NCBI GenBank assembly: GCA_964352335.1
Contig: CAYGRO010000003.1
Location: forward strand, 24,798 to 88,797
Length of the DNA stretch: 64,000 nucleotides
Source: an uncultured Gammaproteobacteria bacterium
Lineage (GTDB): Bacteria > Patescibacteriota > Patescibacteriia > VMEV01 > CAYQCH01
Direction of reading: 5' to 3'
In this document: positions 11,189 to 60,157 of the stretch, piece by piece
How the letters are laid out: the number at the start of each line of letters is the position of its first letter
How positions within the stretch are numbered: the first letter of the stretch is position 1
Program-made: the position numbers and the translations under genes
Notes under the pieces: model-generated
The model's input: only the letters and a program-made list of their open reading frames with translations
The model's database searches: none
Told to the model about the DNA's origin: nothing

Positions 11189-11365
11189 TCAGGCGATCTT
11201 GTTGCCGTTGGGCTTGGCGTTCTTGCTCGCGTCGGGGTTGGCCCGTCGGCGGGTCGCGAGAACTTGGTCCAACAGAAAATCGGAACGACCATCGTTGAGG
11301 GCTGCCTCGACCCGCGAGCGGGGCGGCAGGGACTTCTTGATGGCCACTTGGGTGCTTGCTTTCAT
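11189..11365 (-). CDS. Hypothetical 58-aa basic protein in GC-rich island A (below the ORF-track size cutoff)
   Basis: My own translation reads MKASTQVAIKKSLPPRSRVEAALNDGRSDFLLDQVLATRRRANPDASKNAKPNGNKIA. It is preceded by a perfect GGAGGA Shine-Dalgarno and a TTGACA -35-like hexamer, and sits in a ~60% GC context. Confidence 0.3.
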   Translation of the reverse strand: MKASTQVAIKKSLPPRSRVEAALNDGRSDFLLDQVLATRRRANPDASKNAKPNGNKIA

Positions 11366-11427
11366 GTTTAGACTCCTCCTTTGTCTGATGACAGATTACC
11401 CCAAAACAGGATAATTGTCAACCGTGG

Positions 11428-11907: not shown

Positions 11908-12067
11908 TTTATATCCCCTCAGAATAGTGGTTTAATGTATTGCCAGCAAACCATTTGCTAGCTGATAAAACAAGTCCTCTGGGAACAGAGAACTTGCTGT
12001 ATCAGTAAAGATTACTATAGCACAAAAAGCCACTTTAGTCAATAAGTTATTGACTTTATTTGATCTT

Positions 12068-21789: not shown

Positions 21790-24288
21790 TCATCCTAATT
21801 CCTCTGCTAATCGATAAATATCTCCTGCGCCCATCATTAAGACCACATCATTGGGCTCGATAAGTGAATTTAACGCTGTTTTTGTTTCTTGTAAAGAACC
21901 AGAGGCAATCACTTTTGGACAACGACCACGCTTTTTAATGGCATCTACAAGCATTTGAGCATTCATTTCTTCTTTGGTAATTGTTTCTCGGCCTGCAACA
22001 GCATGAATATCTGGAATAACGGTGACATCAGCAAGGTCAAATGAAGCAACAAAATCATCAAATAATGCTTGAGTTCTATGTCTTGTATGCGCTTGAAAAA
22101 CAGCAATCAACCGTTGACCAGGATAAAATTCTTTTGCTCCTTTAATTGTGGCATGAACCGCTGTTGGGTGGTGAGCATAATCACTAATAATCACAGCTTG
22201 TTTATATTGCCCCAGAATTTGAAACCGTCGCCATGTTCCTTTAAAGCTAGATAAAGCATCACAAATTTCTTGTGGCTTATGCCCGACAATGGATAAAGCA
22301 ACAGCAATAGATGCTAATGCATTTTCAATATTAAATGTTCCTGGCAGTGGAAATGAGCAAGTCGCAACTTTGTCATTATATTGATAAAGAGATAATTCTT
22401 GTTTCTGATCTTTTACCACTACTTCTTTTAACCATAAGTCATTCTCTTTTTTAGACGAGAAAGCGAAAATATTTTTTCCTGATAAATCTAGTTTTTTTGT
22501 TTGTGTATCTTCATCGTTTATTACAAGAAGCCCGTCCTCTGGTAATTTATCTACCATTTTCTGAAAAGCGGCATAATAGTTTTCTTCTGTTTTATAATAA
22601 TCTAAATGATCAGGAACAATATTTGTAATAACAAGTACATCTGGATCTATTTCTAAAAAATGTTCTTTAAACTCATCTCCTTCTACAACTAAAATATCAC
22701 TTTTCCCTGCTCTAAAATTACATTTCCAATCGTTTACAACACTTCCAACCATTGCAGAAGGGTCACATCCCATTTGGATTAAGATATGTGAAATCATCGC
22801 TGTCGTTGTTGTTTTTCCTTTATTCCCTGCAACAACAATCGTATGATAATCCTTTGATAATTGCCCAACCACTTGAAAATTAGTCATCATTTTTATCCCT
22901 AGCTCTTTTGCTTTTACAAGCTCTGGATTATCTAATGGAATAGCATCATTATAGACAATAAGATCAATATCTTCTGTCACATTAGTTGATTCATGCCCCT
23001 TAAGCACAATTGCTCCAGCTTGAGCTAATTGATCTGTAATCATATTTTGTGACAAATCTGAACCTGAAACAACTTTATGATGATGCAAAAAGAAATAGGC
23101 AATATACGAAATACCAATCCCACCAATACCAACGAAATGAACTTTTTTAATGGTTGAAAGATCTAATTGTTTATTCACTTCTTCTTGCTCTTCTCCTTCT
23201 TCAATCGCTTCCACCTTTTGATGAGAAAGTGTTTCTACAATGATATTTGCAATTTTGCTACTAGCTTCTTTTTGATAAAAACTATGAATTTTCTTTCCAT
23301 ATTCTGCTAATTTTTCTTTATCTGAAATAATTTTTTTCAATTGAGCCGCAAATAATTGAGGACTCAATGAGGTTTGATCTAAAATATGAGCTGCTTTTTC
23401 ATTCCATAAAATCTCTGCATTATCTTCTTGATGAGAATTTGGAATTGGAATAATAACAGCAGGTTTTTTTAAGGCTGATAATTCTAAAAAGGTCCCAAGC
23501 CCACCCCGTGTAACAACAAGGTCTGCTTTATCATAGGCTTCTGCCATTTCATCTGTTAAAAATTCTTTTTGTCTATAATTATCTGCTTGAATAGTATTTC
23601 CTTTATCTTTTCCTGTGATATGAATAATATTGGCAAATTTTGTCAGCTCCTCTAACCCCCCCCAAACAAATTCATTCAATGCCTGTGCCCCTGTTCCACC
23701 ACCAAAAATGAATAGAACGGGAAGATTATTATCAAAAGTAAAAGCAGTTGTTATTGGGGTAAAAATTTCTTGTCGTACAGGACCACCTGTTACCGTTGTT
23801 TTTCCTTTTTTATAATCTTGCTCAGAAGCAGGAAAAGTCACACTAATCGTTTTGGCGAATGGAGACATTAATTTATTTGCCAAACCTGGACGGATATCTA
23901 ATTGATGTATATGACTTGGAATTTTTTTAAGCCAGGCCATCCAAACCAATGGAACAGCAATAAAGCCACCAGCGGTAATAATCGCATTTGGTTTTAATTC
24001 ATTCAGTAATTTCCATGCCTTAATACAAGCGTAAATAAGTAAAAATGGCGAAACAATATTTCGTAGGCTAAAAAAACGATCCAACTTAACCATTGGTAAT
24101 GTATAAAAACTAATCTGCTTTTGTGCTATTAATTTTCTTTCTGGACCATTTTTTGTCCCTACCCAAAGATAAGACCACTTAGAATATGATGACTTAAGCT
24201 CTTCGTATACAGCTAAAAGCGGTGTTACAGGACCAATTGTTCCACCACCTGCAAATAGAATTGTTTTTTTATCTTCATTCATAAGCAA
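21790..24288 (-). CDS. murG-murC: Fused MurG (N-terminal glycosyltransferase) and MurC (C-terminal UDP-N-acetylmuramate--L-alanine ligase) protein
   Basis: Residues ~1-360 carry the MurG glycine-rich loop (FAGGGTIGPVTP) and GT-B fold. Residues ~375-832 carry MurC motifs (HFVGIGGIGISYIA...; VAGNKGKTTTTAMISHIL). Confidence 0.85.
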   Translation of the reverse strand: MLMNEDKKTILFAGGGTIGPVTPLLAVYEELKSSYSKWSYLWVGTKNGPERKLIAQKQISFYTLPMVKLDRFFSLRNIVSPFLLIYACIKAWKLLNELKPNAIITAGGFIAVPLVWMAWLKKIPSHIHQLDIRPGLANKLMSPFAKTISVTFPASEQDYKKGKTTVTGGPVRQEIFTPITTAFTFDNNLPVLFIFGGGTGAQALNEFVWGGLEELTKFANIIHITGKDKGNTIQADNYRQKEFLTDEMAEAYDKADLVVTRGGLGTFLELSALKKPAVIIPIPNSHQEDNAEILWNEKAAHILDQTSLSPQLFAAQLKKIISDKEKLAEYGKKIHSFYQKEASSKIANIIVETLSHQKVEAIEEGEEQEEVNKQLDLSTIKKVHFVGIGGIGISYIAYFFLHHHKVVSGSDLSQNMITDQLAQAGAIVLKGHESTNVTEDIDLIVYNDAIPLDNPELVKAKELGIKMMTNFQVVGQLSKDYHTIVVAGNKGKTTTTAMISHILIQMGCDPSAMVGSVVNDWKCNFRAGKSDILVVEGDEFKEHFLEIDPDVLVITNIVPDHLDYYKTEENYYAAFQKMVDKLPEDGLLVINDEDTQTKKLDLSGKNIFAFSSKKENDLWLKEVVVKDQKQELSLYQYNDKVATCSFPLPGTFNIENALASIAVALSIVGHKPQEICDALSSFKGTWRRFQILGQYKQAVIISDYAHHPTAVHATIKGAKEFYPGQRLIAVFQAHTRHRTQALFDDFVASFDLADVTVIPDIHAVAGRETITKEEMNAQMLVDAIKKRGRCPKVIASGSLQETKTALNSLIEPNDVVLMMGAGDIYRLAEELG

Positions 24289-27792: not shown

Positions 27793-29064
27793 CTAAGTAA
27801 ACTGATGAGGCTCTTTAAACCCTCCAACTTTTCGTTTTAAACGAGTATTTATAATACTTGCTCTTTGTAAAGCCTTTTCTCCATAACGATTATTAATCTT
27901 ATCTTGAGCTTCTAAAAGATTTCTATGACGTCTTTCTATACCTAAATAAGGTAATTGCATTCCATCTTTTTTAAGCATGGTTGCTCCAATACCAATTAAT
28001 CGTACAGGTAAACGAAAGAACCATTTATCTAACAAACTTTTGGCTATTTTATAGATATCATAACCATCATCAACATATGTTTTTAGTGTTTTCCCTTCAC
28101 CTGAACTTGTCATATCTTCCCATCGCAAATGCACCCAAATACGACGAGCTTCGTAACCATCTTTTCTTAGTCTTCTCCCAACCTTTTCTGATAACCGCAA
28201 AAGCATACGATAAACCTCATCTCTATTTACTGTATTTTGACTTAATGTATAGGTATGTCCAATTGATTTAGCAGGAGCCACCTCTTCTACATAGGGAACA
28301 ATTGTATGATCAATCCCTTTACCCATATCTGAAAGCATTTTTCCATTATTAGGCCCAAAGACTCGTTGTAATTCTTCTACAGGATAATTACCTAATTGCC
28401 GTAATGTTCTTATCCCCATATCGAATAAACGAATTTTTAAGCGATTACCAATACCTGGGATATCGGTTAATTCAACCCAATCTAAAACATGTCGTAATTG
28501 ATCTGGCTCAATAACAATTAATCCATCTGGCTTTTTCATGCTAGAAGCTAATTTAGACATCATTCTATTTGGAGCAATACCAATAGAACAAGTTAAAATA
28601 TCACCTATTTCTTCTTTAAGATTTTGTTTCATTTTATGAGCGATATCTATAGCCCCTTGATAATCTTTGACCCAGCCCGTTAAATCCATGAACAACTCAT
28701 CTACACTATAGACTTCTATACGATCACTATATCGCTTACCAATATTGATAAATTTTTGCGTAATTTCTTGGTACTTTGTTGGATCACCGTCTATAAACAT
28801 CAAATGAGGACAAAGTTTTAAGGCCTCTGAGGTCTTCATAGCTGTTTTTAGGCCATAGGCTTTTGCTTCTATAGAACAAGCAACAATAACACTTCTAGAC
28901 GCAGGAGAACCACCAATAGCAATAGGTTTACCACGCAAAAAAGGATTGCATTGCTGTTCAGCCGTTGCAAAATAGGAATTGAAATCGATATGTAATATAC
29001 AATTGACCCCGTATAACTCGTTACCTCGCTTACGGGGCAAGCCATTGATATGTGACATATGCAT
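27793..29064 (-). CDS. dinB: Y-family DNA polymerase (DNA polymerase IV-like)
   Basis: The N-terminal motif ILHIDFNSYFATAEQQCNPFLRGKPIAIGG matches the DinB/UmuC catalytic core. Confidence 0.8.
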   Translation of the reverse strand: MHMSHINGLPRKRGNELYGVNCILHIDFNSYFATAEQQCNPFLRGKPIAIGGSPASRSVIVACSIEAKAYGLKTAMKTSEALKLCPHLMFIDGDPTKYQEITQKFINIGKRYSDRIEVYSVDELFMDLTGWVKDYQGAIDIAHKMKQNLKEEIGDILTCSIGIAPNRMMSKLASSMKKPDGLIVIEPDQLRHVLDWVELTDIPGIGNRLKIRLFDMGIRTLRQLGNYPVEELQRVFGPNNGKMLSDMGKGIDHTIVPYVEEVAPAKSIGHTYTLSQNTVNRDEVYRMLLRLSEKVGRRLRKDGYEARRIWVHLRWEDMTSSGEGKTLKTYVDDGYDIYKIAKSLLDKWFFRLPVRLIGIGATMLKKDGMQLPYLGIERRHRNLLEAQDKINNRYGEKALQRASIINTRLKRKVGGFKEPHQFT

Positions 29065-29186
29065 ACCTCCCCCTAACCCCCTCCTTCACAGGAGGGGGAA
29101 GTATAAACAATTAAATACTACCTTCCCCTCCCATTCGGCTCGAGCTCATGGCCGAGAGCTAATTTAGGAGGGGATTGAGGGGTGGT
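29065..29186. repeat. GC-rich palindromic intergenic repeat (ccccctccttcacaggaggggg ... cccctcccattcggctcgagctcatggccgagagc ... ggaggggattgaggggtggta)
   Basis: Shares the ctcgagctca core with the 10994-11058 copy and the ggagggg-tgaggggtggta arm with the 21688-21786 copy. Confidence 0.55.
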
Positions 29187-29189
29187 ATG

Positions 29190-29438
29190 TTACTCCTGAT
29201 AATGTTCAACAAGATACCACTGCAAACTATCTGTATGAAGCTCTAAACGAAAAAACTCTGTGTCTGTAGCTACAGAGAAAAAATAAATACGTTCTTGACC
29301 ATTATGAGTTGAGTGGACATTTAAAATTTGCTTTATTTGATAAAGATTTTTTTCCCAACGTATTAATTTGGGGTGAACCTTCTTTTCATCAAAAAGAGCA
29401 ACGACTTTAATACGGTCTTGAAATTTTTCGTGAAGCAT
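29190..29438 (-). CDS. Hypothetical 82-aa protein immediately upstream of dinB (possible polymerase accessory factor)
   Basis: ORF only, with no recognisable motif. Its position between lexA and a Y-family polymerase is the sole basis for the functional guess. Confidence 0.3.
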   Translation of the reverse strand: MLHEKFQDRIKVVALFDEKKVHPKLIRWEKNLYQIKQILNVHSTHNGQERIYFFSVATDTEFFRLELHTDSLQWYLVEHYQE

Positions 29439-29439
29439 A

Positions 29440-30174
29440 AAGTTTTATTTAGGGAATAAAAAAACTTGCCAAAATTTAGAAGCAAGTTTTTTTATAAACA
29501 AGGTTACAGGTCGTTTTCAATCATCTTAAGGTTTAAAAGAACAAAAGATAACGTTAGATTGTAAACAACCTGTAAGGTTGTGCCAACAAAGTCGGAATTC
29601 TTGTACCTCTTATTAACTGAAAAAAAGGATTTAAAACAGAGAATAAGTCGGCCAATAAAGAATTTCGGTTCCCCTTCTCTTACCCGTCCCCAAATAAGAA
29701 AAGATGAATTGAATCGTTAGCAAGTGGTGTGGAGATGAAAAGATCTGTAACCTTGTTTATGTATGATGCAAATCTACGAATGAATACTAATCCTCCTTCG
29801 CTCTTGAGGAGCTTCGGCGGACAAGTCTGCAAATATTCAACGAATGAAAGGCATCATACTAATTTACTTTCTATTTCATTGTACGAGAGGAATGAAATAG
29901 GAGCAGTAAGAAACTTAGTGAGTGAAACTATACATCGCAACCTTATCTACAACTCTGCCAAGAAGTTGACGATAAAATGCTTTTGTTTTTCTTTTTTTCA
30001 TATTTTTGTTTTTCTAGACTAGGGTAAGGGCTGAAATAAGCAGCAATAAACAGGACCTGTCCAACCCATGGACCCGGATCATAGAGAATTTAGTTATTAG
30101 CGAGTTAAATTATTTTATGACAGTAGGAGGATGCGAATCTACGAATAAATACTAATCTACAAATATCCTACGAA
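29440..30174. other. 735-bp non-coding region between lexA and the dinB operon, carrying two copies of the AATCTACGAAT motif (29771-29805, 30133-30175) and a conserved hairpin (cgctcttgaggagcttcg); candidate ncRNA or regulatory region
   Basis: No convincing ORF. The 97-aa ORF at 29729-30022 has poor composition. Contains the hairpin aaaaacttgccaaaatttagaagcaagttttttt at 29460-29494 and a second copy of the hairpin motif at 31036-31058. Confidence 0.35.
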
Positions 30175-30801
30175 TTACATTGAGAGTTGTGGTGAAAACG
30201 ACCGGATCAAACCTTTAACAACCCCTTGAATAATTGGATCTCTTACAAATATTGGTGACATGGTTGAATTAGCAGGCTGTAAACGGATTTTATCTTTTTC
30301 TCGGTAGAATCGCTTAAGTGTTGCATAAGCATTATCGAGAAGGGCAACAACGATATCTCCATTTCTTGGACTTGGGTTTCTTTCTACAATTACGTAATCT
30401 CCGTCTAAAATTCCATCTTCAATCATTGATTCTCCTTTTACACGCAAGACATAGGAATTAGCAGGGTCGTCTACAAGAGTAATAGGAACAGCAATCGTTT
30501 CTCTTTCTTCTAAAGCTTCAATTGGACTACCTGCAGTAATGAGACCAACAAATGGTAAAGAAATAGACGGTGGTGCTGGTAGAGCTTTTGGTGTTAATTC
30601 AATAGAGCGAGCTTCATTATGATTTGAGGTGACATACCCTTTTTCTTCTAGAGCTTTCATATACTGATGAATACTTGAAGGAGATGAAAGATCAAATGCT
30701 TCTGCGATTTCTCTATAACTTGGCATATAGCTAAAGTCTTGGTAGAAGCTAATGAGAAAGTCGAGAATTTGCTTTTGTTTCTTTGTTAATTGAGCTGACA
30801 T
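30175..30801 (-). CDS. lexA: LexA repressor (S24 peptidase)
   Basis: N-terminal winged HTH (LTKKQKQILDFLISFYQDFSYMPSYREIAEAF) and the C-terminal Ser/Lys dyad (GESMIEDG ... TLKRF). The start was set to the ATG at 30801 (MSAQL); the ORF-track start is a TTG. Confidence 0.85.
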   Translation of the reverse strand: MSAQLTKKQKQILDFLISFYQDFSYMPSYREIAEAFDLSSPSSIHQYMKALEEKGYVTSNHNEARSIELTPKALPAPPSISLPFVGLITAGSPIEALEERETIAVPITLVDDPANSYVLRVKGESMIEDGILDGDYVIVERNPSPRNGDIVVALLDNAYATLKRFYREKDKIRLQPANSTMSPIFVRDPIIQGVVKGLIRSFSPQLSM

Positions 30802-30828
30802 ATGGTTTATGTTTTTCACAGAGAGGTA

Positions 30829-30866
30829 TGATGCCAATCTGCGAATGTATACTAATCTACAAATAA
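30829..30866. promoter_or_regulatory. Conserved ~35-nt motif (minus-sense GATTAGTATACATTCGCAGATTGGCATCATAC) ending about 24 nt upstream of the lexA ATG; candidate operator or promoter element
   Basis: Near-identical to the copies at 20503-20535 (secA upstream) and 29771-29805. Confidence 0.45.
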
Positions 30867-31138: not shown

Positions 31139-31387
31139 TTACATGCTTTTTTTCATTTCGCAATTTTTACAAGCTCCTTCTTTACATTTTTTGCATTTGC
31201 AACCAACGAGAAGAAGAATACCTGCTAGACCTACTAGTACGTAAACAATACGCATAACTAGCGGCCAAGAACCTAGTAAAGCTTCTACTAAGTTCCATTC
31301 GAAAGCTCCTACGAGCCCCCAATTTAGGGCACCAACGATTACCAATAACCAGGCAATCATATGTCCACTACATCCTTTTTTCATCAT
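31139..31387 (-). CDS. DUF378-family small membrane protein with an unusual Cys/Lys-rich C-terminal tail
   Basis: IAWLLVIVGALNWGLVGAFEWNLVEALLG...IVYVLVGLAGILLL matches the DUF378 pattern. The tail is GCKCKKCKEGACKNCEMKK. Confidence 0.55.
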   Translation of the reverse strand: MMKKGCSGHMIAWLLVIVGALNWGLVGAFEWNLVEALLGSWPLVMRIVYVLVGLAGILLLVGCKCKKCKEGACKNCEMKKSM

Positions 31388-31570: not shown

Positions 31571-34500
31571 ATGACACAATTTAAAAAATGGAGTTTTTTA
31601 GGTAGTATTCTTTTTCTTACAATTGGTTCATTTCAGTATTTTTTTCAACAACAAAAAGTTGAACCAGCCTATGCAGCCGCTGGTGACGTAGCAGTAACAA
31701 TTACAAGAGCTGGGGATGCTCAAGCTGTAAGCGGAGCCAATATTCAAGTAAATTGTCCGGCAACTGGTAATAGTATTGTTTTAACAGAAGCTCCTCCCTC
31801 TTCTGGAAATTATTCAGGGAGTTTTCTTGGTCAATGTAATAATGGAGACGCTCTTCTTGCAACCATTCAAGTAAGTGGTTTTGTAGACCAAGCAGCACTC
31901 GCATTCCCTGGTAATTATAACCCTGGAACTGACCCAGATTGTGGTAGTAATACACAATGTTTAAATGTAACCAATTTTCAGCCAGGTGTAGCAATTACCG
32001 TAGAAGATGCTGGCTCTACCCCTATTACTGGGGCAACTGTAAGTTCTGCAAGTGTAGGATGTTATGCAGCTCCTGGTGGTGTTTATTTATGTATTGAACC
32101 AGAAGGCGCTGGTTGCCCAACAACAGATACGGCAACAGCCAATGCCAATGGATTTTTAGCTAATACTGGAAATTATAATCGAAGATGTAATGGGAACGAT
32201 GCACAAAGCCAAATAACAATCCAATTGGCTGTTGACCCCAATGCTGGAGGTGGTGGTATTTTCAAGTTTTTACAACAACAAGAATCTGAATCAAATAAGG
32301 AAACCATTCTACCTAAAATTAATACCAAGGCTATTGATATTCAAATTGAAGAATTAAAGCTTGAATCTACTAACCCCATTCTTATTTGCCCATTCCAAAC
32401 TGAAGAAAAAGATCTTGATGTCTATAGTTTTTACACCCCCCAAAATGCTCCGATTTCACCTATTCCAGGAGAAATTGTTCAACCAGGTATTTTTGGATTT
32501 AAAAATACACAAGGAAAAAATGTAAGAATTGAATTTAATAGTACAAATCCTGGTAATAACGATAATTGGAATTTTGAAGTCACACGCTCTCTTTATGAAG
32601 CTGTAGGGGTTCTTCTTTCATCTACAAAATATATTTATCGTGCTTCTTCAACAAATACTTTACAATTGGTTCAAATTTCTGATGCTCAATTTTTTAATCC
32701 ACAAACCTTACAAGTTATCGGAAACCAGACTATTTATGAATATGATGAAAACGGAAATCTAGCACGAGCTTTTATTCACCCTGATTTTAATGAAAACTTA
32801 CGAGAAGAACTTGCATTCGACGCCATTACTCCTCCTTCATCAGCCTTAGATCACTTTATCCCAAGAAGTAGTTGTCAATTAGCAAATGCCCCTCAACTTC
32901 CTCCAGAAAAAACAGCACCTCTTGAAATTGCCAATCCTATTATTCAATCCCCTTCTATTTTAGAGTTTGAATATGACGCAAATTCAAATGAAGTGCGTGT
33001 TGATTGTCCTGTAGAAACAGCCGTAGCTGGTATTGAGTCATTCCTCTTCTCTAAACTCTTTGCGCCAGGGATAATAGAACCAGGAAACTTACCTTTAGAC
33101 CTTGTTTATTTTATTGTTTGTGATAATGAAACAACGAACCTTGGTTTAGGTGAACGATTAGGAGTGATCAATTCATTTGCTTCAACCTTTAATAGAGTCC
33201 CATTGTCTACAGAAGACTGGATTGATGTTTTATTTATTGCCCATGGATCTGAACCAATACAAAAACCTTCTGAAAAGAAATTTGATGAAGCAAAAAATCT
33301 TTTCGTAAAACTCTTTGATCGACAACCAAATGAACAAGATCCACGTGACAGAGAAAAACTAGATCAATTAGTCTTTGGTATACGACCATTACAGCGAGAT
33401 CTCGAAAAAGAATATGGGGCTATTTTAGAATTTGGTTCAATCTTTAGTGCTTTCCCTGCCTCAAATATGGATTGGAATGTGGTAAGAACCCTTGCCTATG
33501 GAGATGATGTAATTGATTTAAATAAAGTAGATCGACAATTAGCAGATATTAGATCTTCATTAGAAAAAGGACCTTGTACAGAAGAAGAAATAGCCGCTTT
33601 AAATGCACAAAAAGCTCTATTAGAACAAGAAGCGGAAAGTCTTACAAAAAAACAAGATAAATTAAAAGATGAAATTAAAGCTTGTAATGATAAGTCCTCT
33701 GATATGCAGACCAAAAAGAATGATGCAAATACAAAAGCAGAAGATGCAGGAAAAAAATCTGACGACGCACAAAAAGAAGCAGATAAAGCAGATCAAGAAA
33801 TAGCAGACTTAGAAAAAGATATCAAAGATTTACAAGAAACATTAACTGGTGGTGATAATGTAGAAACAAAGTCTACAACAGATCCTCTTGGTGGCATTAA
33901 TTCTGGAGCTGCTATTACCTTTGATGGTGGGGTTACATGGGTTGTAGCAACTGGCGAAAGTGGTGCACAACAACTTGCAGAGAATTTGGCAAATAACCCA
34001 GGCATTGTAAAAGATTTGCAAAATAAGAAAAACGAATTGAATGAGAAAAAAGCTGATAAACAAAAAGCCGAAGAAAACAAAGAAAAGGCTGATAAAGAAA
34101 AAGCGGATGCCGAAAAAGAAGCCTCTGACCTAGAAAAACAACTTGAAGCAAAAAAAGCTGATACAGCAAAAAAAGAAAAGGACTTAGATGATATTGGAAA
34201 GCGTATTGATGAATTAAATAAAAAGATTGCCGAATTTAATGAAGTTGCAAAAAAATGCGATATCGCAGCTGCTGGTGCAAAAAGAGAAGCTTCTGAAAAG
34301 CTAAATGAAGCCAAAAAGAAATTAGACAAAATGCCCCCAGAAGAAAAAGAAGAAGCAGAAAATATCTTTGATGAAAATGCAACAGATGAAGAAAAAGGAG
34401 CCGATACAGATGCAGGATATGCTGGTGGAGCAGCTGATAAAGCAGCAGATAAACTAGAAGAAGCAATGCGTGCGGCTTCTGGCTGTAAAGATGGCGATAA

Positions 34501-35170
34501 AAAGTGTGGAGGAACCTATTCCACAGGCAAAACACTCATCGGTAGCGGGACAGAAGGATGGTTCCAAACCCTTCTCTATTTACGTGGCGGTGGTCTTGAT
34601 GGAGATGTTAAATACAATGAAATGGTAAATGATGTTCAAGATGCCTTTGGTAATGTAGAGTCGATTGAACAAGTAGGATTAGCTATTGGAACAACCGTTG
34701 AGGTTTTATCTGGCAGTAGTATTTTAGGGATTGGTATGGCTATTCCTGGTCTTGTTTATGGGGCTTGGTCAAATATAGCAACAGAAGCTGCCTTAAATAG
34801 AATTGCAGAAATTAGAAATGTTGTTCCTAACCCTACAATTGACGGAGACCTCTTCTTCTATGGAGGTTGGGATAAATATAGTCAAGACACCAGAATAGAA
34901 AGATTCATCTGTCTAGATGGAATTTGGCAACCAAATGGATCTTCACTTGTCTCTACCAAAATTACTTGTGAATATAGAGATCCAGCTATTGAAGTTGTCC
35001 CTATCCCAGAAGGAAACCTCCCCGACTACAGTGAAAAAGAAAATGGAAACTGGAGAAACCCAGATAGTCTTAAAAAATTCTCTGAATGGAGAGCAACCCA
35101 ATTAAATGAACACCAACCATTTGGTACCTGCAAAGAACAAATCTTTACGTATAGCCCTAGTTGTGGGTAA
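31571..35170 (+). CDS. Giant secreted protein (1199 aa) with an N-terminal signal/TM, a Cys-containing beta-rich region and a ~300-aa K/E/A/D-rich coiled-coil segment
   Basis: Hydrophobic N-terminus (WSFLGSILFLTIGSF). The coiled-coil block covers residues ~640-960 (KKADKQKAEENKEKADKEKADAEKEASDLEKQLEAKKAD...). Antisense ORFs in this block are low-complexity artefacts. Confidence 0.6.
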   Translation: MTQFKKWSFLGSILFLTIGSFQYFFQQQKVEPAYAAAGDVAVTITRAGDAQAVSGANIQVNCPATGNSIVLTEAPPSSGNYSGSFLGQCNNGDALLATIQVSGFVDQAALAFPGNYNPGTDPDCGSNTQCLNVTNFQPGVAITVEDAGSTPITGATVSSASVGCYAAPGGVYLCIEPEGAGCPTTDTATANANGFLANTGNYNRRCNGNDAQSQITIQLAVDPNAGGGGIFKFLQQQESESNKETILPKINTKAIDIQIEELKLESTNPILICPFQTEEKDLDVYSFYTPQNAPISPIPGEIVQPGIFGFKNTQGKNVRIEFNSTNPGNNDNWNFEVTRSLYEAVGVLLSSTKYIYRASSTNTLQLVQISDAQFFNPQTLQVIGNQTIYEYDENGNLARAFIHPDFNENLREELAFDAITPPSSALDHFIPRSSCQLANAPQLPPEKTAPLEIANPIIQSPSILEFEYDANSNEVRVDCPVETAVAGIESFLFSKLFAPGIIEPGNLPLDLVYFIVCDNETTNLGLGERLGVINSFASTFNRVPLSTEDWIDVLFIAHGSEPIQKPSEKKFDEAKNLFVKLFDRQPNEQDPRDREKLDQLVFGIRPLQRDLEKEYGAILEFGSIFSAFPASNMDWNVVRTLAYGDDVIDLNKVDRQLADIRSSLEKGPCTEEEIAALNAQKALLEQEAESLTKKQDKLKDEIKACNDKSSDMQTKKNDANTKAEDAGKKSDDAQKEADKADQEIADLEKDIKDLQETLTGGDNVETKSTTDPLGGINSGAAITFDGGVTWVVATGESGAQQLAENLANNPGIVKDLQNKKNELNEKKADKQKAEENKEKADKEKADAEKEASDLEKQLEAKKADTAKKEKDLDDIGKRIDELNKKIAEFNEVAKKCDIAAAGAKREASEKLNEAKKKLDKMPPEEKEEAENIFDENATDEEKGADTDAGYAGGAADKAADKLEEAMRAASGCKDGDKKCGGTYSTGKTLIGSGTEGWFQTLLYLRGGGLDGDVKYNEMVNDVQDAFGNVESIEQVGLAIGTTVEVLSGSSILGIGMAIPGLVYGAWSNIATEAALNRIAEIRNVVPNPTIDGDLFFYGGWDKYSQDTRIERFICLDGIWQPNGSSLVSTKITCEYRDPAIEVVPIPEGNLPDYSEKENGNWRNPDSLKKFSEWRATQLNEHQPFGTCKEQIFTYSPSCG

Positions 35171-35189
35171 TACATTCTCCCTTTAAAAA

Positions 35190-35230
35190 GCAAGGCCCCC
35201 ACCTCTCAGGAAGATGTGGGGGTTTTGTCT
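35190..35230 (+). terminator. Rho-independent terminator after the giant gene
   Basis: The sequence gcaaggcccccacctctcaggaagatgtgggggttttgtc is a GC hairpin followed by a T-run. Confidence 0.55.
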
Positions 35231-35478
35231 TGGCTCGTCGCCTCACTCGGAGGAAGCTTAAGACTTGCGTCATTGCTAAACGTAACCAAGGCGATACATA
35301 GACCAATGAGAATGAAGACATACCCCCCAGTGATCAGGGGATACTCTCCAGGAAGATCCTTTTCTCCGCCCACGATGAGACAGATAAAGGTTATTAATCC
35401 AACGAGACACCAGATCAGAAAAACGACCATGGTGTAGTACATCTTTTCGTCAGGAATATGAGACTTCTTTTGCGGCAT
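35206..35478 (-). CDS. Small membrane protein (90 aa, two TM helices) at the edge of GC island B
   Basis: ORF with two hydrophobic helices and intermediate GC content. Coding status is uncertain. Confidence 0.3.
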   Translation of the reverse strand: MPQKKSHIPDEKMYYTMVVFLIWCLVGLITFICLIVGGEKDLPGEYPLITGGYVFILIGLCIALVTFSNDASLKLPPSEATSQDKTPTSS

Positions 35479-35605
35479 GTCTAGCTCCTTTGCCTAAACA
35501 AGGTTTACCATACTTTTTTACAAAATGAAACGAGCTAGCAAGACAGTCCGCTCCCGTGAGGGTGCATAATGTCGAGCTAGCTCGTTGTGGGCCAATTACG
35601 CTGGC

Positions 35606-37277
35606 TTAGGGCTTGTCCCGCGCCGTGACCAGGGTCCGGGCCGGGTCGAAGGTCCCGGGGTTGAGAGGGTCTTCCCTTCGCTCGATTGCGAAGAGAAAGT
35701 CCTCACCCAGAGTGGGCGTCCCGTTCTTGATGAACATGTGGCTATCCCTCACGTCGGAGGAACGACCATCGGGCATGAACGACCACTTGTTGTCGTCCCC
35801 CAAGTCCGCGTCGTTGAATGGCAACGTGTGCCGGCCAACGGGGTTGGTGGGGTCGACGTTCAAGCGCGTCGTGCCTTCGTCGAAGGGGAACGGATGCGTT
35901 CCCAGCTGTTGATTGGCCGCATCGCGACGCACCGTGAGCGTGGGAATGACCATCGTCCCGTAGTCCGGTGGACCGAACCAGGCGGGACTGTCGGTGTTGG
36001 TGCACCGCCAGATCGACGAGACCGTGGGAAGCACCCACTTGCCTGCTGCCACCTGGTACGGAATCCCGAACCGCATGTGGGTGTCCCAGATACGGTTGGT
36101 GATATTGCCGGAGCCGTCCAGTCGAACGTGAACGGTAGGGTTACCGTCGAGCGTACGCGACTTGAACGTCTGCGTCATCCCGTTGAAGGTCGCGGTGATG
36201 GTGAAGAACGAGTTGATCCCGTTACCTCCCTTCACGTCGCGCCCCTCGATGAGGATGGGCTGGCCGTTGAAGTCGTTGACCACCGCGGCCTTGTTGGCAT
36301 CGTCGATGGACATCGTACACTGCGTGGTCACCTCCGCCATGCTCGCGAGGTCATAGACCCGGAACCGACGCCGCTCGCCCATCGAGATGAACGAGGGAGC
36401 CTGGATGACCAGCCCCGTGGAAGGAAGTGTGGGAGAGGAAGTCAGTGTCAGCTCATTGCTGACGATGACCTCATTCCAGCCCTGTTGGACGGTAGAGGTT
36501 CCACCGCCAGCGTCGGTGAAGGTCTTGGTCAAGGTGGTCTGAGCACCGACCCCGAAGGAGCGGACCTTGATCTGCTCGTTGTTGAGACGAGCGACGACCT
36601 TGCCGTCCGCATCGACAGCGGCAGCCCCAGACACGACCTCGTAGAAGACGAGGGTCCTGTTGACCGAGGAGGCGTTGTCGGTGTGAACCAGGTTGGTACC
36701 CAGCTCCGCACCGGTCCCGACGTCGATCTGAGCCGGCGCCGAGAGCGTGATGCTCTTGAGCAAGTCCGTCGTGGGGATGGGGTTGCTCCCACCACCGCCA
36801 CCGCCTCCAGTGGAAGCGACGACGACCTCCACGATGTCGGTGATCCTCTCGGTGATCGTCTTGCCGTTCTTCGTCACGGTGAACGTGATCGAAACCTTGC
36901 TAGGCGCAACGGCCAGGATCAGCCCCGTGTTGTCCAACACCTGAACGATGTTGGGGTCGGAGCTATTGACGGAGTCAGCCGTAACCTTCTCCGTCTGGCT
37001 CGTTCCCTTGAAGATCGCCACGATCTCCAGCTGCTGCTGGGTACCCTGGACGAGCTGGAAGGCACGAGGGGTCACCCCGATACCGACGAACTCGAGGTTC
37101 GCAGTGTTGGGGTTGTTGGTGGGTGGAGTGTTCGTCGGTCCACCACCGCTCGGGTTGGCACCTCCGGAGCCAGCGAGCTGGTTACCCTTGGGGCGACGAC
37201 GCGAGTCGCAGGCCTGGAAGATCATCGCCGAAACGATGACGAAGATGATCAGAAACAGGGTGCGCAATCCACGCATA
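35606..37277 (-). CDS. GC-rich putative lipoprotein with Big_2-like Ig domains, likely horizontally acquired
   Basis: Lipobox at MRGLRTLFLIIFVIVSAMIFQAC, preceded by AGGAGGTG. A Big_2-like segment (VTPRAFQLVQGTQQQLEIVAIFKGTSQTEKVTADSVNSSDPNIVQV) and G/T/S-rich linkers are present. The GC content is far above the flanks. The opposite-strand 576-aa ORF is Arg-rich antisense noise. Confidence 0.5.
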
Positions 37278-37470
37278 GTACACCTCCTAGGTGTTTGAAA
37301 CGTTGTTTGATATGAAAAAAGCACTCGCTAGCAATATGCCAGCAAATACTCTCTCCCCTTCTATTCTCTCATTACAGTGGCGCATTTAAGCGTATAATGA
37401 AAGAATAGATTAAATTACAATAAAAACGGCTTTTTGTCAAGCCATAAAGCCCCTAATAAAATAGCTAATA

Positions 37471-38661
37471 TTAGGCTAATTTTTTAAATGATTGCATATT
37501 GGAAGCGATAAAAAGGAGGGTAAAACCACCAGCTAAAACAAAAGTTAAGGCAAAGAAAGTTGTCTCATCTAAATAAAGAGCTAATGGGATAAGCAATAAA
37601 TAGAAAAAAACACGAGTAATATTGGTTAAAACTTCCCTCCCCAAAATAAAGGTTGTAGGTGCTTTTTCTCTTTTAGCGAGCTTATAAAAAATACTTGACC
37701 AAGCAACAATTAAAGCAGGATAAAATAAAAAGAAGAGCAAATGACTAATCGATGCTGTTAAAGCAGAGTCAACAAATAGACGACTAAACCAAACGAGAGC
37801 TGTTAATATCGCTGTAACACTCAACACTTTTTTTCTTTTCCCATGATCAGTCATTGAACCAGCAATAAAAGTCATTAAAGAACTGATCAATAGTGAAAGT
37901 GAAATGAGCCCTCCAAATTCTTCTAAATTCCCTATTTGAATAAATAGATACAGTTTCCACAAAACAGTCGCAACAATAAATTCATTGGCATAGCCGATAT
38001 TAGAGATTGTATGCGCCCAATGTTTTTTATTAAAAACAGATTGAAATAAATGCTTCGCAGTTAAATTCGGAGAGACTTTTCGTTTTTTAAAAAACAGAAG
38101 TGGCAAAAGTGCTAAGACTAAAATACAAGCACTTAAAAAGAAGACTGTTTTAAAATTGAATTGCGTAATAATCACAGCACCTAAAAATGGAGCAGCCAAT
38201 GCGACAAGTGAAGTAATCATATGACGCAAACCAAGTTCTTTCCCTAAATCTTTTTTATCACTTGCCCCCGAAAAATCTAAATGATACCCCGTATTAAAAA
38301 AGATCGATTTATAAACAGCAATGAGAGGAATAACCCAAAAGAGCCATGAATAATTTTCTAAAAATGGTATCAACAAAGCTGTCCCCACAAAAAAAGGAAC
38401 GCTTGCAATAAGCATCGATTTATCTGACATTTTTCGCAATATCGGAATACTCAAAAAAGCAGCGATAACAAAATAGACATTTTCTATCGCATAAAATAAT
38501 AAAATCTTCCAAAGTGGATATCCTAATTCCCAAAGAAAAATTGGAATAAAAACTGTCACAAGCCCAAGTGCAAAATTCACCAAGGCAACAGCAAAATAGA
38601 GAGATGTCACTTCCCTATTTCCAAAAAACTGGATATGCCTGGTTATATGATTATTAATCAT
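37471..38661 (-). CDS. Polytopic membrane transporter (MFS-like)
   Basis: 396 aa with about 11-12 hydrophobic helices. Confidence 0.4.
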   Translation of the reverse strand: MINNHITRHIQFFGNREVTSLYFAVALVNFALGLVTVFIPIFLWELGYPLWKILLFYAIENVYFVIAAFLSIPILRKMSDKSMLIASVPFFVGTALLIPFLENYSWLFWVIPLIAVYKSIFFNTGYHLDFSGASDKKDLGKELGLRHMITSLVALAAPFLGAVIITQFNFKTVFFLSACILVLALLPLLFFKKRKVSPNLTAKHLFQSVFNKKHWAHTISNIGYANEFIVATVLWKLYLFIQIGNLEEFGGLISLSLLISSLMTFIAGSMTDHGKRKKVLSVTAILTALVWFSRLFVDSALTASISHLLFFLFYPALIVAWSSIFYKLAKREKAPTTFILGREVLTNITRVFFYLLLIPLALYLDETTFFALTFVLAGGFTLLFIASNMQSFKKLA

Positions 38662-39710
38662 TTTTTCACAAAAAGTGTTTGTGTTGGATAAGCAAATTCA
38701 ATTTTCTCTTGAGCAAATACTTTATTTAAAGCAAATAACACTTCTTGTTGCTTATCTAGATACAAAACAAAATCATCATCATTTACAAAATAAGAAAATT
38801 CAAATGTAATAGCAGAGTCGTCAAAACTTATTAAATGAGCTCTATTGAAGGTAACTTGTTCTACCTCATCTACAATCTTTTTAAAGATCTCAGGGATTTT
38901 TTCTAATTTTTCTTGTGGAGTTTCGTAAAGAACACCAACAGAAAAAATAACATTTCTACTTTTTATTCGTCTAAAGTTATTAATTCGGCTGGTCGTTAAT
39001 TCTTGATTAGAAATGATAATCTCTTCTCCTTGCAATGACTGTAATCTTGTTGTTTTAATTCCAACCTTTTTTACTGTCCCAGAATCTTGTCCGACCTGAA
39101 TAAAATCACCAACCTCAAAAGGTTTATCAAAATAAATAGCAAAAGAACTAAATAAATCACCCAAAACATTTTGTAAGGCTAATGCGACGGCAACCCCACC
39201 AATACCTAGCCCCGCAATAAGTGATGTAATATTTACCCCTAAATTTGAAAGAATCAGTAATCCACCAATTAGCCAAAAAACTCCCATGGTCATTTGGCGT
39301 AATAAACCAATCATGGGAGCAGAGCCATTCTTTTTCATCTGATGCTCAGCGATATAGTCAATAAAAACACTAAGAGCATTCACAACCACGATAACTGACC
39401 AAACTGTAAGAATGACATTAGCTGCTGTCTTTAGGTAACTTGGTAATTGTAAAAGGCTTAACGAAATCGAAAATGCAAAAAAAAGATAAAATGAAGTAGA
39501 AATGCTTTTAAGCATTCGTATAACTAAATCATCAATTCCAATAGCTGTTTTTTGTGTTAATGCATATAGTTTATGCAGAATATAAACTATAATAACTTTA
39601 AAGAACACAAATAAGATGATAAATACACCCAAAGCAATACAATACTGTAAAAGCGTATTGGAAAAAAACATCATTCCCCAAAATGGCAAATCTAAAAAAT
39701 CATTTATCAT
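38658..39710 (-). CDS. mscS: Small-conductance mechanosensitive channel
   Basis: TM3-beta domain signature GLGIGGVAVALALQNVLGDLFSSFAIYFDKPFEVGDFIQV. Confidence 0.75.
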   Translation of the reverse strand: MINDFLDLPFWGMMFFSNTLLQYCIALGVFIILFVFFKVIIVYILHKLYALTQKTAIGIDDLVIRMLKSISTSFYLFFAFSISLSLLQLPSYLKTAANVILTVWSVIVVVNALSVFIDYIAEHQMKKNGSAPMIGLLRQMTMGVFWLIGGLLILSNLGVNITSLIAGLGIGGVAVALALQNVLGDLFSSFAIYFDKPFEVGDFIQVGQDSGTVKKVGIKTTRLQSLQGEEIIISNQELTTSRINNFRRIKSRNVIFSVGVLYETPQEKLEKIPEIFKKIVDEVEQVTFNRAHLISFDDSAITFEFSYFVNDDDFVLYLDKQQEVLFALNKVFAQEKIEFAYPTQTLFVKK

Positions 39711-43888: not shown

Positions 43889-44734
43889 CTAGTCGAGGTA
43901 GGCCATCATCGCTTCGAGGAATTTCCGTAACTGTTCAGCCCGGTCAGCTCCTCGGCGGCTGATCTCTTCGTGGTCGTGCTCTTCCTTGTCATCGTTGGTG
44001 ATCAAGCAGAGCATCAAAGCACGAACACCTAGATCTCGGTACAACCGAGCAAGGTACATTTCCCACTGCCCGCTCATTCCGATGACTTCTGCCCCCCAAC
44101 TCTTGAAGAGAGGTTTTTCCGCCCACCGCCCCTCGAGATGAGGTCCACGGCAGATCATGTGAGTGGCAAGCTTACCACCCAGCTCCTCTATGGCGACACG
44201 AGAGAGCTCATGATCAACACCGTCTTCTGGGGCAGCGAAATCGTCGCCGGCAAAAGCCATTGGCGGGCTGTAGAACGAAGCACCAAGGAAAGCCCTTGGC
44301 ACAGCGATGTCCCCAACCACGAGATCCTCGGAAAGACTCCCGCAACCGCTCGTCGAGATCAAGTAGCGGACTCCTGCGTGGAAGAGCATCTCGATTGAGA
44401 GGCGTGCGAGCTTCATGCTTGGGTCTTGGTAGCCATGGATTCGGCTACAAATGACAACATCAAGCCCCTTAACCTCCATATAGCCCAGCCACTTACCGTG
44501 ACCATCAACACCATCGAGGTTCGCGACTTCTTCCAAGCCGGGAACGTCTTGAAGACGGATCTTCACCTTGAAGTCCTTGTCTTCGAAAGCATCACCCCAG
44601 CCACTACCTGGAATGATGGCAACTGCTGGGCTGCTCCCCTTTGGAATCTGCAGAAGATCCCGAAGAGCTGCCCCGGCTTTCTCTGCCGACTCGAGGCAAG
44701 CTCGATTTACACCTTTTTCCATAAACACATCCAA
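43889..44734 (-). CDS. Purine nucleoside phosphorylase / MTA phosphorylase-family enzyme (PNP family 2), GC-rich and likely horizontally acquired
   Basis: IIPGSGWG phosphate-binding loop and VIGMSGQWEMYLARLYRDLGVRALMLCLITND, which matches the PNP/MTAP signature GMSTVPEVIVARH...SLITN. The GC content is far above that of the neighbouring genes. Confidence 0.6.
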   Translation of the reverse strand: MDVFMEKGVNRACLESAEKAGAALRDLLQIPKGSSPAVAIIPGSGWGDAFEDKDFKVKIRLQDVPGLEEVANLDGVDGHGKWLGYMEVKGLDVVICSRIHGYQDPSMKLARLSIEMLFHAGVRYLISTSGCGSLSEDLVVGDIAVPRAFLGASFYSPPMAFAGDDFAAPEDGVDHELSRVAIEELGGKLATHMICRGPHLEGRWAEKPLFKSWGAEVIGMSGQWEMYLARLYRDLGVRALMLCLITNDDKEEHDHEEISRRGADRAEQLRKFLEAMMAYLD

Positions 44735-56692: not shown

Positions 56693-56697
56693 TTTCT

Positions 56698-60075: not shown

Positions 60076-60086
60076 CAGTCACTCTG

Positions 60087-60157
60087 TTCCGAGACGAGGA
60101 TTCGAACCCCGATTCTATGGACCAGAACCATATGTCCTACCATTAGACGATCTCGGA
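60087..60157 (-). tRNA. tRNA-Gln (anticodon CUG)
   Basis: Manual fold: acceptor TCCGAGA/TCTCGGA, D-stem GTCT/GGAC with loop AATGGTA, anticodon stem TATGG/CCATA with loop TTCTGGT (anticodon CTG), variable loop GAAT, T-arm CGGGG-TTCGAAT-CCTCG, discriminator A. CCA is not encoded. Confidence 0.7.

Follow-up and report, generated by a model that had tools for sequence, protein, structure and literature searches.

A candidate hypervariable surface-lipoprotein expression site with A-poor third codon positions in an uncultured Patescibacteria lineage

The 64-kb stretch of contig CAYGRO010000003.1 analysed here (hereafter the window) carries a GC-rich block, island B, whose minus strand encodes a 556-aa lipoprotein. 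Island B is probably a conserved, modular expression site for a hypervariable surface lipoprotein, marked by a persistent, strand-asymmetric and mostly synonymous codon bias. The site would consist of a fixed frame comprising a promoter, a two-hairpin leader, a strong Shine-Dalgarno (SD) sequence, a signal peptide with a short tether and, on the 3' side, a strong terminator, usually followed by a small membrane protein gene and then a DUF378 gene, with LexA beyond in several relatives. Within this frame, the gene body would evolve very fast and would sometimes be replaced or reshuffled, and each lineage would maintain the near-elimination of A-ending codons and a preference for C- and G-ending codons, superimposed on the composition of its genome. 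The bias would be driven by selection on codon choice linked to expression of the lipoprotein mRNA.

The lipoprotein gene, its relatives and its frame

An exhaustive phmmer search against 1.84 billion cluster representatives gave 15 matches to the lipoprotein. P0001 matched over the full length with 41% identity; in P0002-P0005 and P0009 the match began at the second or third Ig-like domain and extended across the C-terminal domain, and the remaining ones covered only the Ig-like part. Word-indexed protein searches with the single protein and with the family alignment gave no match, probably owing to the abundance of low-complexity G/N/T words. Pattern and tblastn scans found no relatives in GTDB genomes (lipoprotein and transporter of the major facilitator superfamily, MFS, as queries) and none in JGI metagenomes (family alignment and the protein of locus L008, described below) or viral contigs, and tblastn found none among phages and plasmids. 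All family members with readable DNA lie in lower-GC DNA and are GC-enriched over their flanks; those with long flanks share a syntenic Patescibacteria context, upstream of DUF378. When LexA was used as an anchor, three more genomes were found, namely L008, L012 (GCA_964503955.1) and L015. The gene orders are given in Table 2.

L008 comes from a sister species whose LexA, DinB/IMS, MFS transporter and giant coiled-coil protein are 93%, 82%, 73% and 59% identical to those of the window, respectively; LexA identity to the window is 83% in L012 and 90% in L015. LexA proteins that are more distant (64-66% identity) carry the labels Patescibacteria group, Candidatus Uhrbacteria and Candidatus Falkowbacteria, which places the organism in the Patescibacteria, or candidate phyla radiation (CPR), and suits the episymbiotic small-genome bacterium supposed earlier. 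Among relatives the lipoprotein shares 28-41% amino acid identity, in contrast to 74-83% for LexA and 71-82% for DinB.

The variability of the site was most evident when the window was compared with L008. The flanking DNA of the two is 71-79% identical, whereas no nucleotide similarity was detected over 35172-37489. The L008 lipoprotein has 607 aa and three copies of a different domain (A3, the share of A at third codon positions, 0.01), and only the tether after the lipobox Cys is shared with the mature window protein (47% identity over aa 24-61). The two loci do align at the promoter, the SD sequence, the 5' coding end with the signal peptide, the terminator region and the small gene. Furthermore, the 428-aa lipoprotein of L015 has an Ig-like N-terminal half, and the 150 residues at its C-terminus match the L008 repeat with 38% identity. 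Because the L008 body is unrelated and the L015 protein is a mosaic, lipoprotein bodies and domains are exchanged between fixed ends. Conservation of the locus, body replacement and mosaicism are all visible at the level of sequence comparison, and the surface-remodelling hotspot suggested by the first-pass annotation survives in this modified form.

That annotation had also placed the lipoprotein as an insertion behind the giant coiled-coil gene. Only the window and L008 carry the giant gene; the equivalent interval lacks it in L002, L012, L015, L005 and L006, where the lipoprotein gene lies directly before DUF378, with or without the small gene. From this distribution, it is the giant gene, absent in five relatives, that is the lineage-specific insertion, and the lipoprotein gene is ancestral at the site.

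Marks of a switching or copying system were sought within the window. Comparison of the island with the rest of the window and with itself by blastn (word size 7) detected no repeat longer than chance, tblastn with nine family proteins detected no silent copies or paralogues in the rest of the window, and no inverted-repeat switch was found in it. A diversity-generating retroelement target was also considered, prompted by a gene that is rich in Asn/AAC and nearly devoid of A at third positions, and was rejected, as the window holds no template repeat; not all of its open reading frames (ORFs) were scanned for reverse transcriptase.

The expression signals around the gene are listed in Table 1. 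The motif TTGACA-N17-TAATTT occurs in six of the six loci with readable upstream DNA, i.e. the window, L008, L012, L002, L005 and L015 (TAATCT in the last), and in relatives it lies about 130-165 nt upstream of the start codon. It was kept although the coding regions share only 28-41% amino acid identity or none. TGC stands directly before the -10 element in most relatives and TTG in the window. The motif is presumed to function as a promoter. The window leader has a minimum free energy (MFE) of -56.1 kcal/mol (z = -7.25 against shuffles). Leaders in the family are about 100-140 nt long, and the two-hairpin layout, in which a U-run closes the second hairpin, was predicted in L008, L012, L002, L005 and L015 with z of -1.0 to -5.1. 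Folding of the leader alignment gave weak covariation, and no Rfam family matched the leader, which may serve as an mRNA stabiliser or a transcription attenuator. The terminator-like hairpin after the stop codon has an MFE of -37.1 kcal/mol (z = -4.9), and equivalent hairpins, likewise long and GC-rich, follow the genes in L008 (z = -8.2) and L012 (z = -5.5). A conserved promoter, leader, SD sequence and terminator around a fast-evolving body point to expression under strong constraint, and suggest that the lipoprotein gene is highly expressed.

Table 1. Coordinates of features in and around island B and of other features mentioned in the text (window numbering)
Feature	Position	Strand	Remarks
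Promoter	37412-37440	-	-35 TTGACA (37440-37435), 17-nt spacer, -10 TAATTT (37417-37412)
5' leader, ~135 nt	37277-37411	-	Two long predicted hairpins, the second ending in a U-run (37320-37315), then the SD sequence
SD sequence	37281-37288	-	AGGAGGTG, precedes the lipoprotein ATG
Lipoprotein gene, 556 aa	35606-37276	-	ATG at 37276, stop at 35606; assigned from ORF, signal peptide, homologues and AlphaFold2 model
Signal peptide	37208-37276	-	N-terminus MRGLRTLFLIIFVIVSAMIFQAC; Cys23 in a loose lipobox
Terminator-like hairpin	35522-35585	-	Long hairpin followed by UUCAUUUU, directly after the stop codon
Antisense ORF, 576 aa	35585-37315	+	By-product of the avoidance of A at third positions, not a gene
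Small two-helix membrane protein, 90 aa	35206-35478	-	GC3 0.53, A3 0.15
Giant coiled-coil surface protein gene	31571-35170	+	Between the small membrane gene and DUF378
DUF378	31139-31387	-	Downstream of the lipoprotein in L002, L005, L006, L008, L012 and L015
LexA	30175-30837	-	Beyond DUF378 in L005, L008, L012 and L015
LexA, 82-aa protein, Y-family polymerase (DinB/IMS) block	27793-30837	-	Present in window, L008, L012 and L015
MFS transporter	37471-38661	-	Assigned by Pfam; GC3 0.26; elsewhere in L008 only
MscS channel	38658-39710	-	Assigned by Pfam; GC3 0.22; also in L008 and L002
tRNA-Gln(CUG)	60086-60157	-	Only tRNA gene in the window
Island A	11001-11950		GC about 0.53-0.55
Island A, 159-aa ORF	11428-11907	-	GC3 0.64
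Island A, 58-aa ORF	11189-11365	-	Own AAAGGAGG ribosome-binding site
Island C, purine-nucleoside phosphorylase	43889-44734	-	GC 0.548, GC3 0.59
Three tandem Laminin_G_3 paralogues	50615-59733	+	1011-1012 aa each; GC3 0.20-0.26
832-aa ORF	21790-24288	-	Syntenic to the MurG-MurC gene of L008; assigned by size and position

Substrates of Lgt and LspA are recognised by a basic n-region, a hydrophobic h-region and a lipobox of the form [LVI][ASTVI][GAS]C. The n- and h-regions of the window signal peptide are typical, and its lipobox, F-Q-A-C, is non-canonical at positions -3 and -2; lipidation is predicted, and the protein was counted as a bacterial lipoprotein. At the aligned position, relatives have LVAGC, TAAGC, LLAGC, LLQGC and VANGC. 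The earlier call of a lipoprotein with a lipobox and a strong SD sequence was accordingly upheld, with the lipobox being loose.

The signal peptide is followed by a G/P/N/T-rich tether, which is disordered in an AlphaFold2 model built from a seven-sequence alignment (mean pLDDT 60.8, moderate). The model contains three Ig-like beta-sandwich domains at aa 62-152, 173-280 and 289-376, with pLDDT of about 60-93. The C-terminal domain (aa 377-556) is conserved and all-beta, with no assigned fold, and was poorly modelled. Bacterial matches obtained with Foldseek were the Big domains of LigA (8gyr, E = 1.7e-8) and the S-layer Ig-like arrays of Sap, EA1 and SbsC, so that the tandem beta-sandwiches resemble solved Big/Ig domains at the fold level in this moderate-quality model. 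Pfam Big_2 (PF02368) gave a single match at aa 65-140, below threshold with 20.4 bits against a gathering cut-off of 22.8, and no NCBIfam model matched. Big_2 domains had been claimed for the protein; the model retains three Ig-like domains, and the Big_2 assignment itself stays sub-threshold. The predicted anatomy is that of a lipid-anchored Ig-like stalk bearing a distal beta-rich domain, which would suit a role in surface contact, coat or attachment.

Both strands of the island carry long ORFs (556 aa on the minus strand and 576 aa on the plus strand), as had been noted before. The plus ORF is open across the whole island, was picked by gene callers and is the one on public record for the window contig (P0016, sources NCBI and Logan). 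It has no Pfam family match. Since it runs in phase with the sense codons, its stops could come only from sense TTA, CTA or TCA, all of which are absent from the window lipoprotein gene. In nine related genes, the same antisense frame is open in three and contains one to four stops in six, and the pooled TTA/CTA/TCA frequency gives a probability of 0.335 for an open frame of this length. The openness of the frame matches the expectation from codon usage, and dual coding was rejected. Homologues, signal peptide, SD sequence, conserved promoter and terminator all lie on the minus strand, and the minus frame has GC3 (GC content at third codon positions) much higher than GC1, which exceeds GC2, with the order reversed in the plus frame. 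On these grounds the minus-strand ORF is the real gene and the plus ORF an artefact of composition, as the first-pass annotation had also judged; the chance that the plus ORF is real, or that both strands code, is negligible. The true lipoprotein is not in the exact-sequence protein index, the public gene calls having used the antisense ORF. Antisense ORFs were likewise called at this locus in L008 (3274-3759 and 3790-5142, minus strand) and L015 (2985-4193, minus strand).

Codon bias of the lipoprotein genes

The base composition changes sharply at the island. A 400-nt sliding profile gave GC of 0.61-0.63 over about 35600-37200 and 0.29-0.39 on either side. The segment with GC of at least 0.50 spans 35451-37350 and has about 60% GC, compared with a window mean of 0.374 and flanks of about 33%; the GC-rich island described earlier is thereby confirmed. 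By part, the GC content is 0.27 in the promoter region, 0.40 in the 5' untranslated region (UTR), 0.616 in the gene and 0.535 in the 3' UTR with the terminator.

In the window lipoprotein gene, GC3 is 0.82, with A, T, C and G shares at third positions (A3, T3, C3 and G3) of 0.04, 0.14, 0.48 and 0.34, respectively. By comparison, GC3 is 0.17-0.32 in the 45 other window ORFs outside the three GC-rich islands, and 0.19-0.25 in the genes for enolase, GAPDH, EF-Ts, ribosomal protein S2 and SecA. The same enrichment over neighbours was observed in relatives (Table 2). Expressed as log-odds, the GC3 shift of the gene over its host was 1.2-2.8 in every lineage (six loci with pooled flanks); this is the pattern that a constant directional force added to the mutational equilibrium of each host would give.

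Table 2. Gene order and codon usage at the lipoprotein loci (LIPO, lipoprotein gene; Lys codons as AAA/AAG counts)
Locus	Gene order	LIPO GC3	Neighbour GC3	Lys AAA/AAG
Window	MscS-MFS-LIPO-small ORF-[giant gene, other strand]-DUF378-LexA-82aa-DinB (minus-strand order)	0.82	0.22 (pooled)	0/17
L008		0.85	0.28 (pooled)	0/12
L015	PBP-LIPO-DUF378-PNPOx-LexA	0.74	0.25 (pooled)	0/21
L002 (P0001)	178aa-PBP-MscS-LIPO-small ORF-DUF378	0.56	0.27 (pooled)	0/23
L012	malic enzyme-LIPO (542 aa, same family)-DUF378-LexA	0.85	0.54 (pooled)	
L005 (P0004)	TPP enzyme-aldehyde dehydrogenase (Aldedh)-98aa-LIPO-DUF378-LexA-83aa	0.93	0.67 (pooled)	0/24
L006 (P0009)	TPP-aldehyde dehydrogenase-LIPO-DUF378-Sua5	0.93	0.49-0.56	0/13
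L003		0.61	0.41-0.46	
L004		0.92 (gene GC 0.62)	very short flanks, GC roughly 0.49-0.51	0/14

The hallmark of the bias is the removal of A from third positions. A3 is 0.00-0.06 in eight of nine genes (0.04, 0.055, 0.01, 0.02, 0.00, 0.015, 0.04 and 0.02), and AAA is absent wherever Lys codons are listed in Table 2, whereas the flanks of the low-GC hosts mostly use AAA, GAA and CAA. For two-fold purine-ending (NNR) codons, A-ending and G-ending codons number 717 and 157 in the window flanks and 4 and 51 in the lipoprotein gene (p = 6e-31); Fisher tests of gene against flanks gave p of 1e-14 to 1e-52. The bias is strand-asymmetric, because the shift from A to G exceeds that from T to C in all six loci with pooled flanks and, in L002, T3 is at the host level (0.39 against 0.41) with A3 at 0.055 against 0.32.

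The protein composition largely did not follow the third positions. Relative to the host, GARP (the share of Gly, Ala, Arg and Pro) and R/(R+K) are equal or lower in four of six loci, and Asn is enriched 1.4- to 3.5-fold. GC1 of the lipoprotein genes is only 0.49-0.55; under the Muto-Osawa relations, genes native to genomes with GC3 of 0.8-0.9 have GC1 near 0.65-0.7. Along the window gene, GC3 is evenly high (0.73-0.90 in 60-codon blocks), and the enrichment starts at the first codons. What emerges is a persistent, mostly synonymous bias that is specific to the gene, differs between the strands and has the start codon as its 5' boundary.

L006 also contains a second, unrelated lipoprotein gene (11883-12473, plus strand; 196 aa, lipobox LLANGC). 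Its GC3 is 0.84 and its A3 is 0.04, against about 0.5 and about 0.2 in the host, with AAA/AAG of 0/5 and GAA/GAG of 1/12. The finding is a hint that the bias extends beyond a single locus to a class of lipoprotein genes. A control scan for lipoproteins whose codon usage follows that of the host gave none in the sequence scanned.

Explanations for the anomalous composition

We infer that the bias results from selection on codon choice, and favour this explanation over biased gene conversion or incomplete amelioration, because the bias starts at the start codon, the shift from A to G exceeds that from T to C, the amino acid composition is largely host-like and the bias recurs in the unrelated L006 lipoprotein. 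Such selection could take two forms, namely translation via tRNAs of little use to a bulk proteome with A/T-ending codons, or an mRNA that is structured and very stable. The asymmetry between A and T would be expected if the selected property were which tRNA reads the codon. When NNA becomes NNG, decoding can pass from U34 to C34 isoacceptors, while NNU and NNC share the same G34 tRNA.

This leads to a tentative idea, which we regard as possible rather than likely: a small set of surface lipoprotein genes in this lineage may be written in a codon dialect that has almost no A-ending codons, bypasses U34 tRNAs, relies on little-used C34/G34 isoacceptors and is kept by selection while the protein sequence turns over completely and even while bodies are replaced. 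Rarely used isoacceptors reportedly stay charged under amino-acid starvation, a point ascribed to Elf et al. in 2003, and several toxins cut U34 tRNAs or AAA codons. An indispensable surface protein would gain from lacking A-ending codons. If the idea were true, the dialect would allow synthesis of the attachment protein to continue while the main tRNA pool is exhausted or under attack, for instance by amino-acid starvation off the host, by anticodon nucleases or, at the level of mRNA, by A-codon-specific interferases. The only tRNA gene in the window, tRNA-Gln(CUG), lies about 23 kb from the island; CAA outnumbers CAG about fivefold in the genome, but the lipoprotein gene contains 19 CAG and 2 CAA.

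Two further mechanisms were considered and rejected. Ordinary translational selection does not fit the genes for enolase, GAPDH, EF-Ts and S2, which as a rule are strongly expressed and yet keep GC3 of 0.19-0.25, and transcription-associated deamination of the sense strand does not fit C being the commonest third base.

Several observations weigh against the reading of island B as an expression site shaped by codon selection. The effect is much weaker in L003, with A3 of 0.19 against 0.21-0.28 in neighbours and the GC3 seen in Table 2 (0.61 against 0.41-0.46). R/(R+K) and GARP exceed the host values somewhat in the window and in L008, and the pressure there is not purely synonymous. The 3' UTR (GC 0.535) and the small gene (GC3 0.53 in the window and 0.72 in L008) are also enriched, and this 3' spill-over could come from a regional process such as recombination tracts as well as from co-selection. 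Body replacement between sister species indicates some horizontal exchange, and import from higher-GC relatives is conceivable for a single genome; high-GC3 relatives may moreover be under-represented in protein databases since callers pick the antisense frame. Finally, the putative adhesin or surface-layer role draws on fold resemblance, in models with pLDDT of about 60.

One alternative is cassette traffic within the lineage. According to this explanation, bodies would be swapped repeatedly by homologous recombination via the conserved ends, would come from higher-GC relatives and would be incompletely ameliorated, so that low-GC hosts would at any time contain recent imports. The replacement of the body between the window and L008, the mosaic in L015 and conserved 5' and 3' ends that could act as recombination arms are all in its favour, and so is the clustering of gene GC3 at 0.82-0.93 whatever the host, even as host GC3 spans 0.22-0.67. 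However, the GC-richest host (L005, GC3 0.67) still has its gene at 0.93, and no matching source population was found among the loci. Symmetric amelioration cannot give the host-level T3 of L002 without a host-level A3, the closest body to that of the window (L002, 38-41% identity) is too diverged for recent import, and the unrelated L006 lipoprotein shows the same bias at another site. We therefore consider cassette traffic an unlikely source of the composition.

GC-biased gene conversion at a recombination hotspot, with allelic exchange under diversifying selection, would fit the recombinogenic nature of the site, the spill-over of enrichment into the 3' UTR and the small gene, and a shift that behaves as a constant log-odds term on host composition. 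Recombining bacterial genes tend to higher GC3. Antigenic-variation loci such as Borrelia vls are also GC-rich (PMC11499132). Biased conversion is, however, strand-symmetric, whereas A was removed more than T in six of six loci; the adjoining 5' UTR is host-like (GC 0.40), and amino acid composition is barely shifted in four of six loci. The effect size, a GC3 increase of 0.26 to 0.60, is to our knowledge far beyond that reported for biased gene conversion in bacteria. This explanation is accordingly given slight weight.

The first-pass annotation had proposed a third explanation, recent acquisition from a high-GC donor such as an actinobacterial host, with the GC content not yet ameliorated. 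The atypical base composition of the sharply bounded block is what an acquired genomic island would show, and the third-position shares of the window gene resemble those of genomes with 60-65% GC. The window also holds two further GC-rich islands, one of which, with a purine-nucleoside phosphorylase gene, is absent from the syntenic interval of L012. Against acquisition, no homologue was found outside Patescibacteria contigs by phmmer or the pattern and tblastn scans, and no compositionally matching donor emerged; the phmmer relatives with readable DNA all lie in lower-GC DNA in Patescibacteria-like contexts. The top homologues belong to low-GC relatives, joined by mid-GC ones, and share the high GC of the locus, which is the outcome that the first-pass annotation had itself named as refuting its reading. 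Absence of the island from sister genomes had been set as a test, whereas a GC-rich lipoprotein gene occupies the same site in L008 and in L002, L005, L006, L012 and L015, and the same gene, locus and enrichment recur in relatives whose LexA is 74-83% identical. With 28-41% amino acid identity, synonymous sites are saturated; because they have turned over many times, a donor signal could not survive and the composition cannot have been passively retained. The Asn-rich composition and low GC1 are unlike those of native high-GC proteins, and promoter, leader and signal peptide are conserved within the lineage. The borders of the island show no mobility genes, repeats or adjacent tRNA, the neighbours being the MFS, MscS and coiled-coil genes. 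Recent acquisition from such a donor is thus highly improbable.

A chimera of two organisms, made in assembly or binning, would explain the abrupt change in composition at the island edges and had been named as a possible refutation, but its probability is close to nil: window positions 32589-39020 are matched with 100% identity by the Logan assembly of run ERR3534985, so that an independent assembly spans both junctions and makes them real, and eight further independent contigs from other samples have the same arrangement.

Comparison with known systems and neighbouring genes

The locus belongs with the variable surface-lipoprotein loci of anomalous composition, and several known systems share part of its features. 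In Borrelia, the vls cassettes have 49% GC in a genome with 28.6%, which recurs across species and has been attributed to selection (PMC11499132). As in Borrelia vlsE, a surface lipoprotein gene in a small AT-rich genome has coding DNA that is far richer in GC. The vls system is further characterised by a GC skew of 0.52, coding-strand G-runs, an adjacent array of silent cassettes supplying gene conversion and the alpha-helical fold of VlsE (PMC11499132). By contrast, the coding-strand GC skew of the nine genes studied here is -0.085 to +0.058, neither silent copies nor repeats occur in the window, the proteins, with Ig-like beta domains here, are unrelated to VlsE, and the hallmark is the avoidance of A at third codon positions. 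A gene-conversion system of the vls type was rejected, as there is no strong GC skew and no silent cassette in the 64-kb window of the 126-kb contig.

The Vsp, Vlp, Vsa and Vpma lipoproteins of Mycoplasma combine a conserved promoter, 5' UTR and lipoprotein signal peptide with highly variable mature regions. Their hosts are wall-reduced or small-genome bacteria living on other cells. The window and L008 resemble this arrangement, with a conserved 5' end joined to divergent bodies. The Mycoplasma lipoproteins form intragenomic multigene families that are switched by site-specific inversion or simple-repeat slippage, whereas one copy per genome was seen here, variation is between lineages, and the window has neither paralogue nor switch. 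We know of no GC-rich codon usage in the Mycoplasma families.

The O-antigen and capsule loci of Enterobacteria occupy a fixed site with conserved flanks and non-homologous alleles of atypical composition, and the surface structure is under diversifying selection. Island B is similarly a fixed site with non-homologous alleles of atypical composition. Those loci are clusters of several biosynthetic genes with atypically low GC, for which a foreign origin is generally assumed, whereas island B is a single protein gene with high GC3 and a strand-specific codon signature.

Within the CPR, a gene for a hypervariable extracellular protein with PTD repeats in a Gracilibacterium of very low GC has a GAC:GAT ratio of 6.2:6.7 against 0.83:4.79 (Sieber et al. 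2019, PMC6851277). Like the genes described here, it is a hypervariable CPR surface gene with synonymous usage shifted to C-ending codons. There, the variation is within a population and limited to a 9-mer repeat array, and the shift was described for one amino acid; here, a whole non-repetitive gene is affected, in many lineages and in a syntenic position. In architecture, the predicted protein is reminiscent of the Lig proteins of Leptospira and the Gram-positive S-layer proteins Sap, EA1 and SbsC, in which strings of Ig-like, Big-type beta-sandwiches project from the surface. A literature search returned no description of a syntenic single-copy lipoprotein site with avoidance of A-ending codons across hosts of 36-55% GC and with non-homologous bodies.

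The site would offer a clean natural example of a gene-specific composition held against genomic mutation bias, in hosts of 36-55% GC and in non-homologous bodies, and what maintains anomalous GC in variable surface genes becomes a testable question. The lipoprotein is probably the major variable surface protein in a lineage of uncultured episymbionts and a candidate for host attachment and specificity. The case also warns that calls of horizontal gene transfer based on composition can be wrong. Furthermore, it exposes a recurrent annotation error: the antisense frame was called in the window, L008 and L015, so that the family is under-detected by homology and looks rarer than it is.

The neighbouring MFS and MscS genes have host-typical composition. 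The small membrane protein, whose presence had been reported before and was confirmed, is 41% identical to that of L008 (5349-5618) and has no Pfam or NCBIfam assignment; L002 has a small gene at the same position with GC3 of 0.30. For the LexA-DinB block, no link to the variability of the lipoprotein locus was found. In L005, LexA and an 83-aa gene are followed by the end of the contig.

The window has two other GC-rich islands. Island A carries the 159-aa ORF followed by the 58-aa ORF, neither of which has a Pfam or NCBIfam match; it could be a small acquired two-gene module, e.g. a toxin-antitoxin pair. Island C encodes a divergent purine-nucleoside phosphorylase (NCBIfam PRK08202, E = 1e-29, under the family cut-off) and has SufB on one side and a 190-aa membrane protein on the other. 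The phosphorylase is missing from the syntenic interval of L012 (SufB-128aa-C39 peptidase), and island C, unlike island B, may be a genuine acquisition.

Two further observations concern surface and wall genes elsewhere in the window. Each of the three tandem paralogues in Table 1 has a Laminin_G_3 or pentaxin-like lectin domain (Pfam E of 1e-19 to 1e-24) and host-typical composition, and in locus L016 a LamG protein of 2506 aa is encoded directly upstream of LexA. A single gene of 834 aa in L008 (17097-19601) contains both a MurG (Glyco_transf_28) and a MurC (Mur_ligase) domain, and the 832-aa ORF of the window is its putative counterpart at the syntenic position. MurG and MurC are separate genes in L012 (17638-20099) and L016, and the MurG-MurC gene looks like a lineage-specific fusion.

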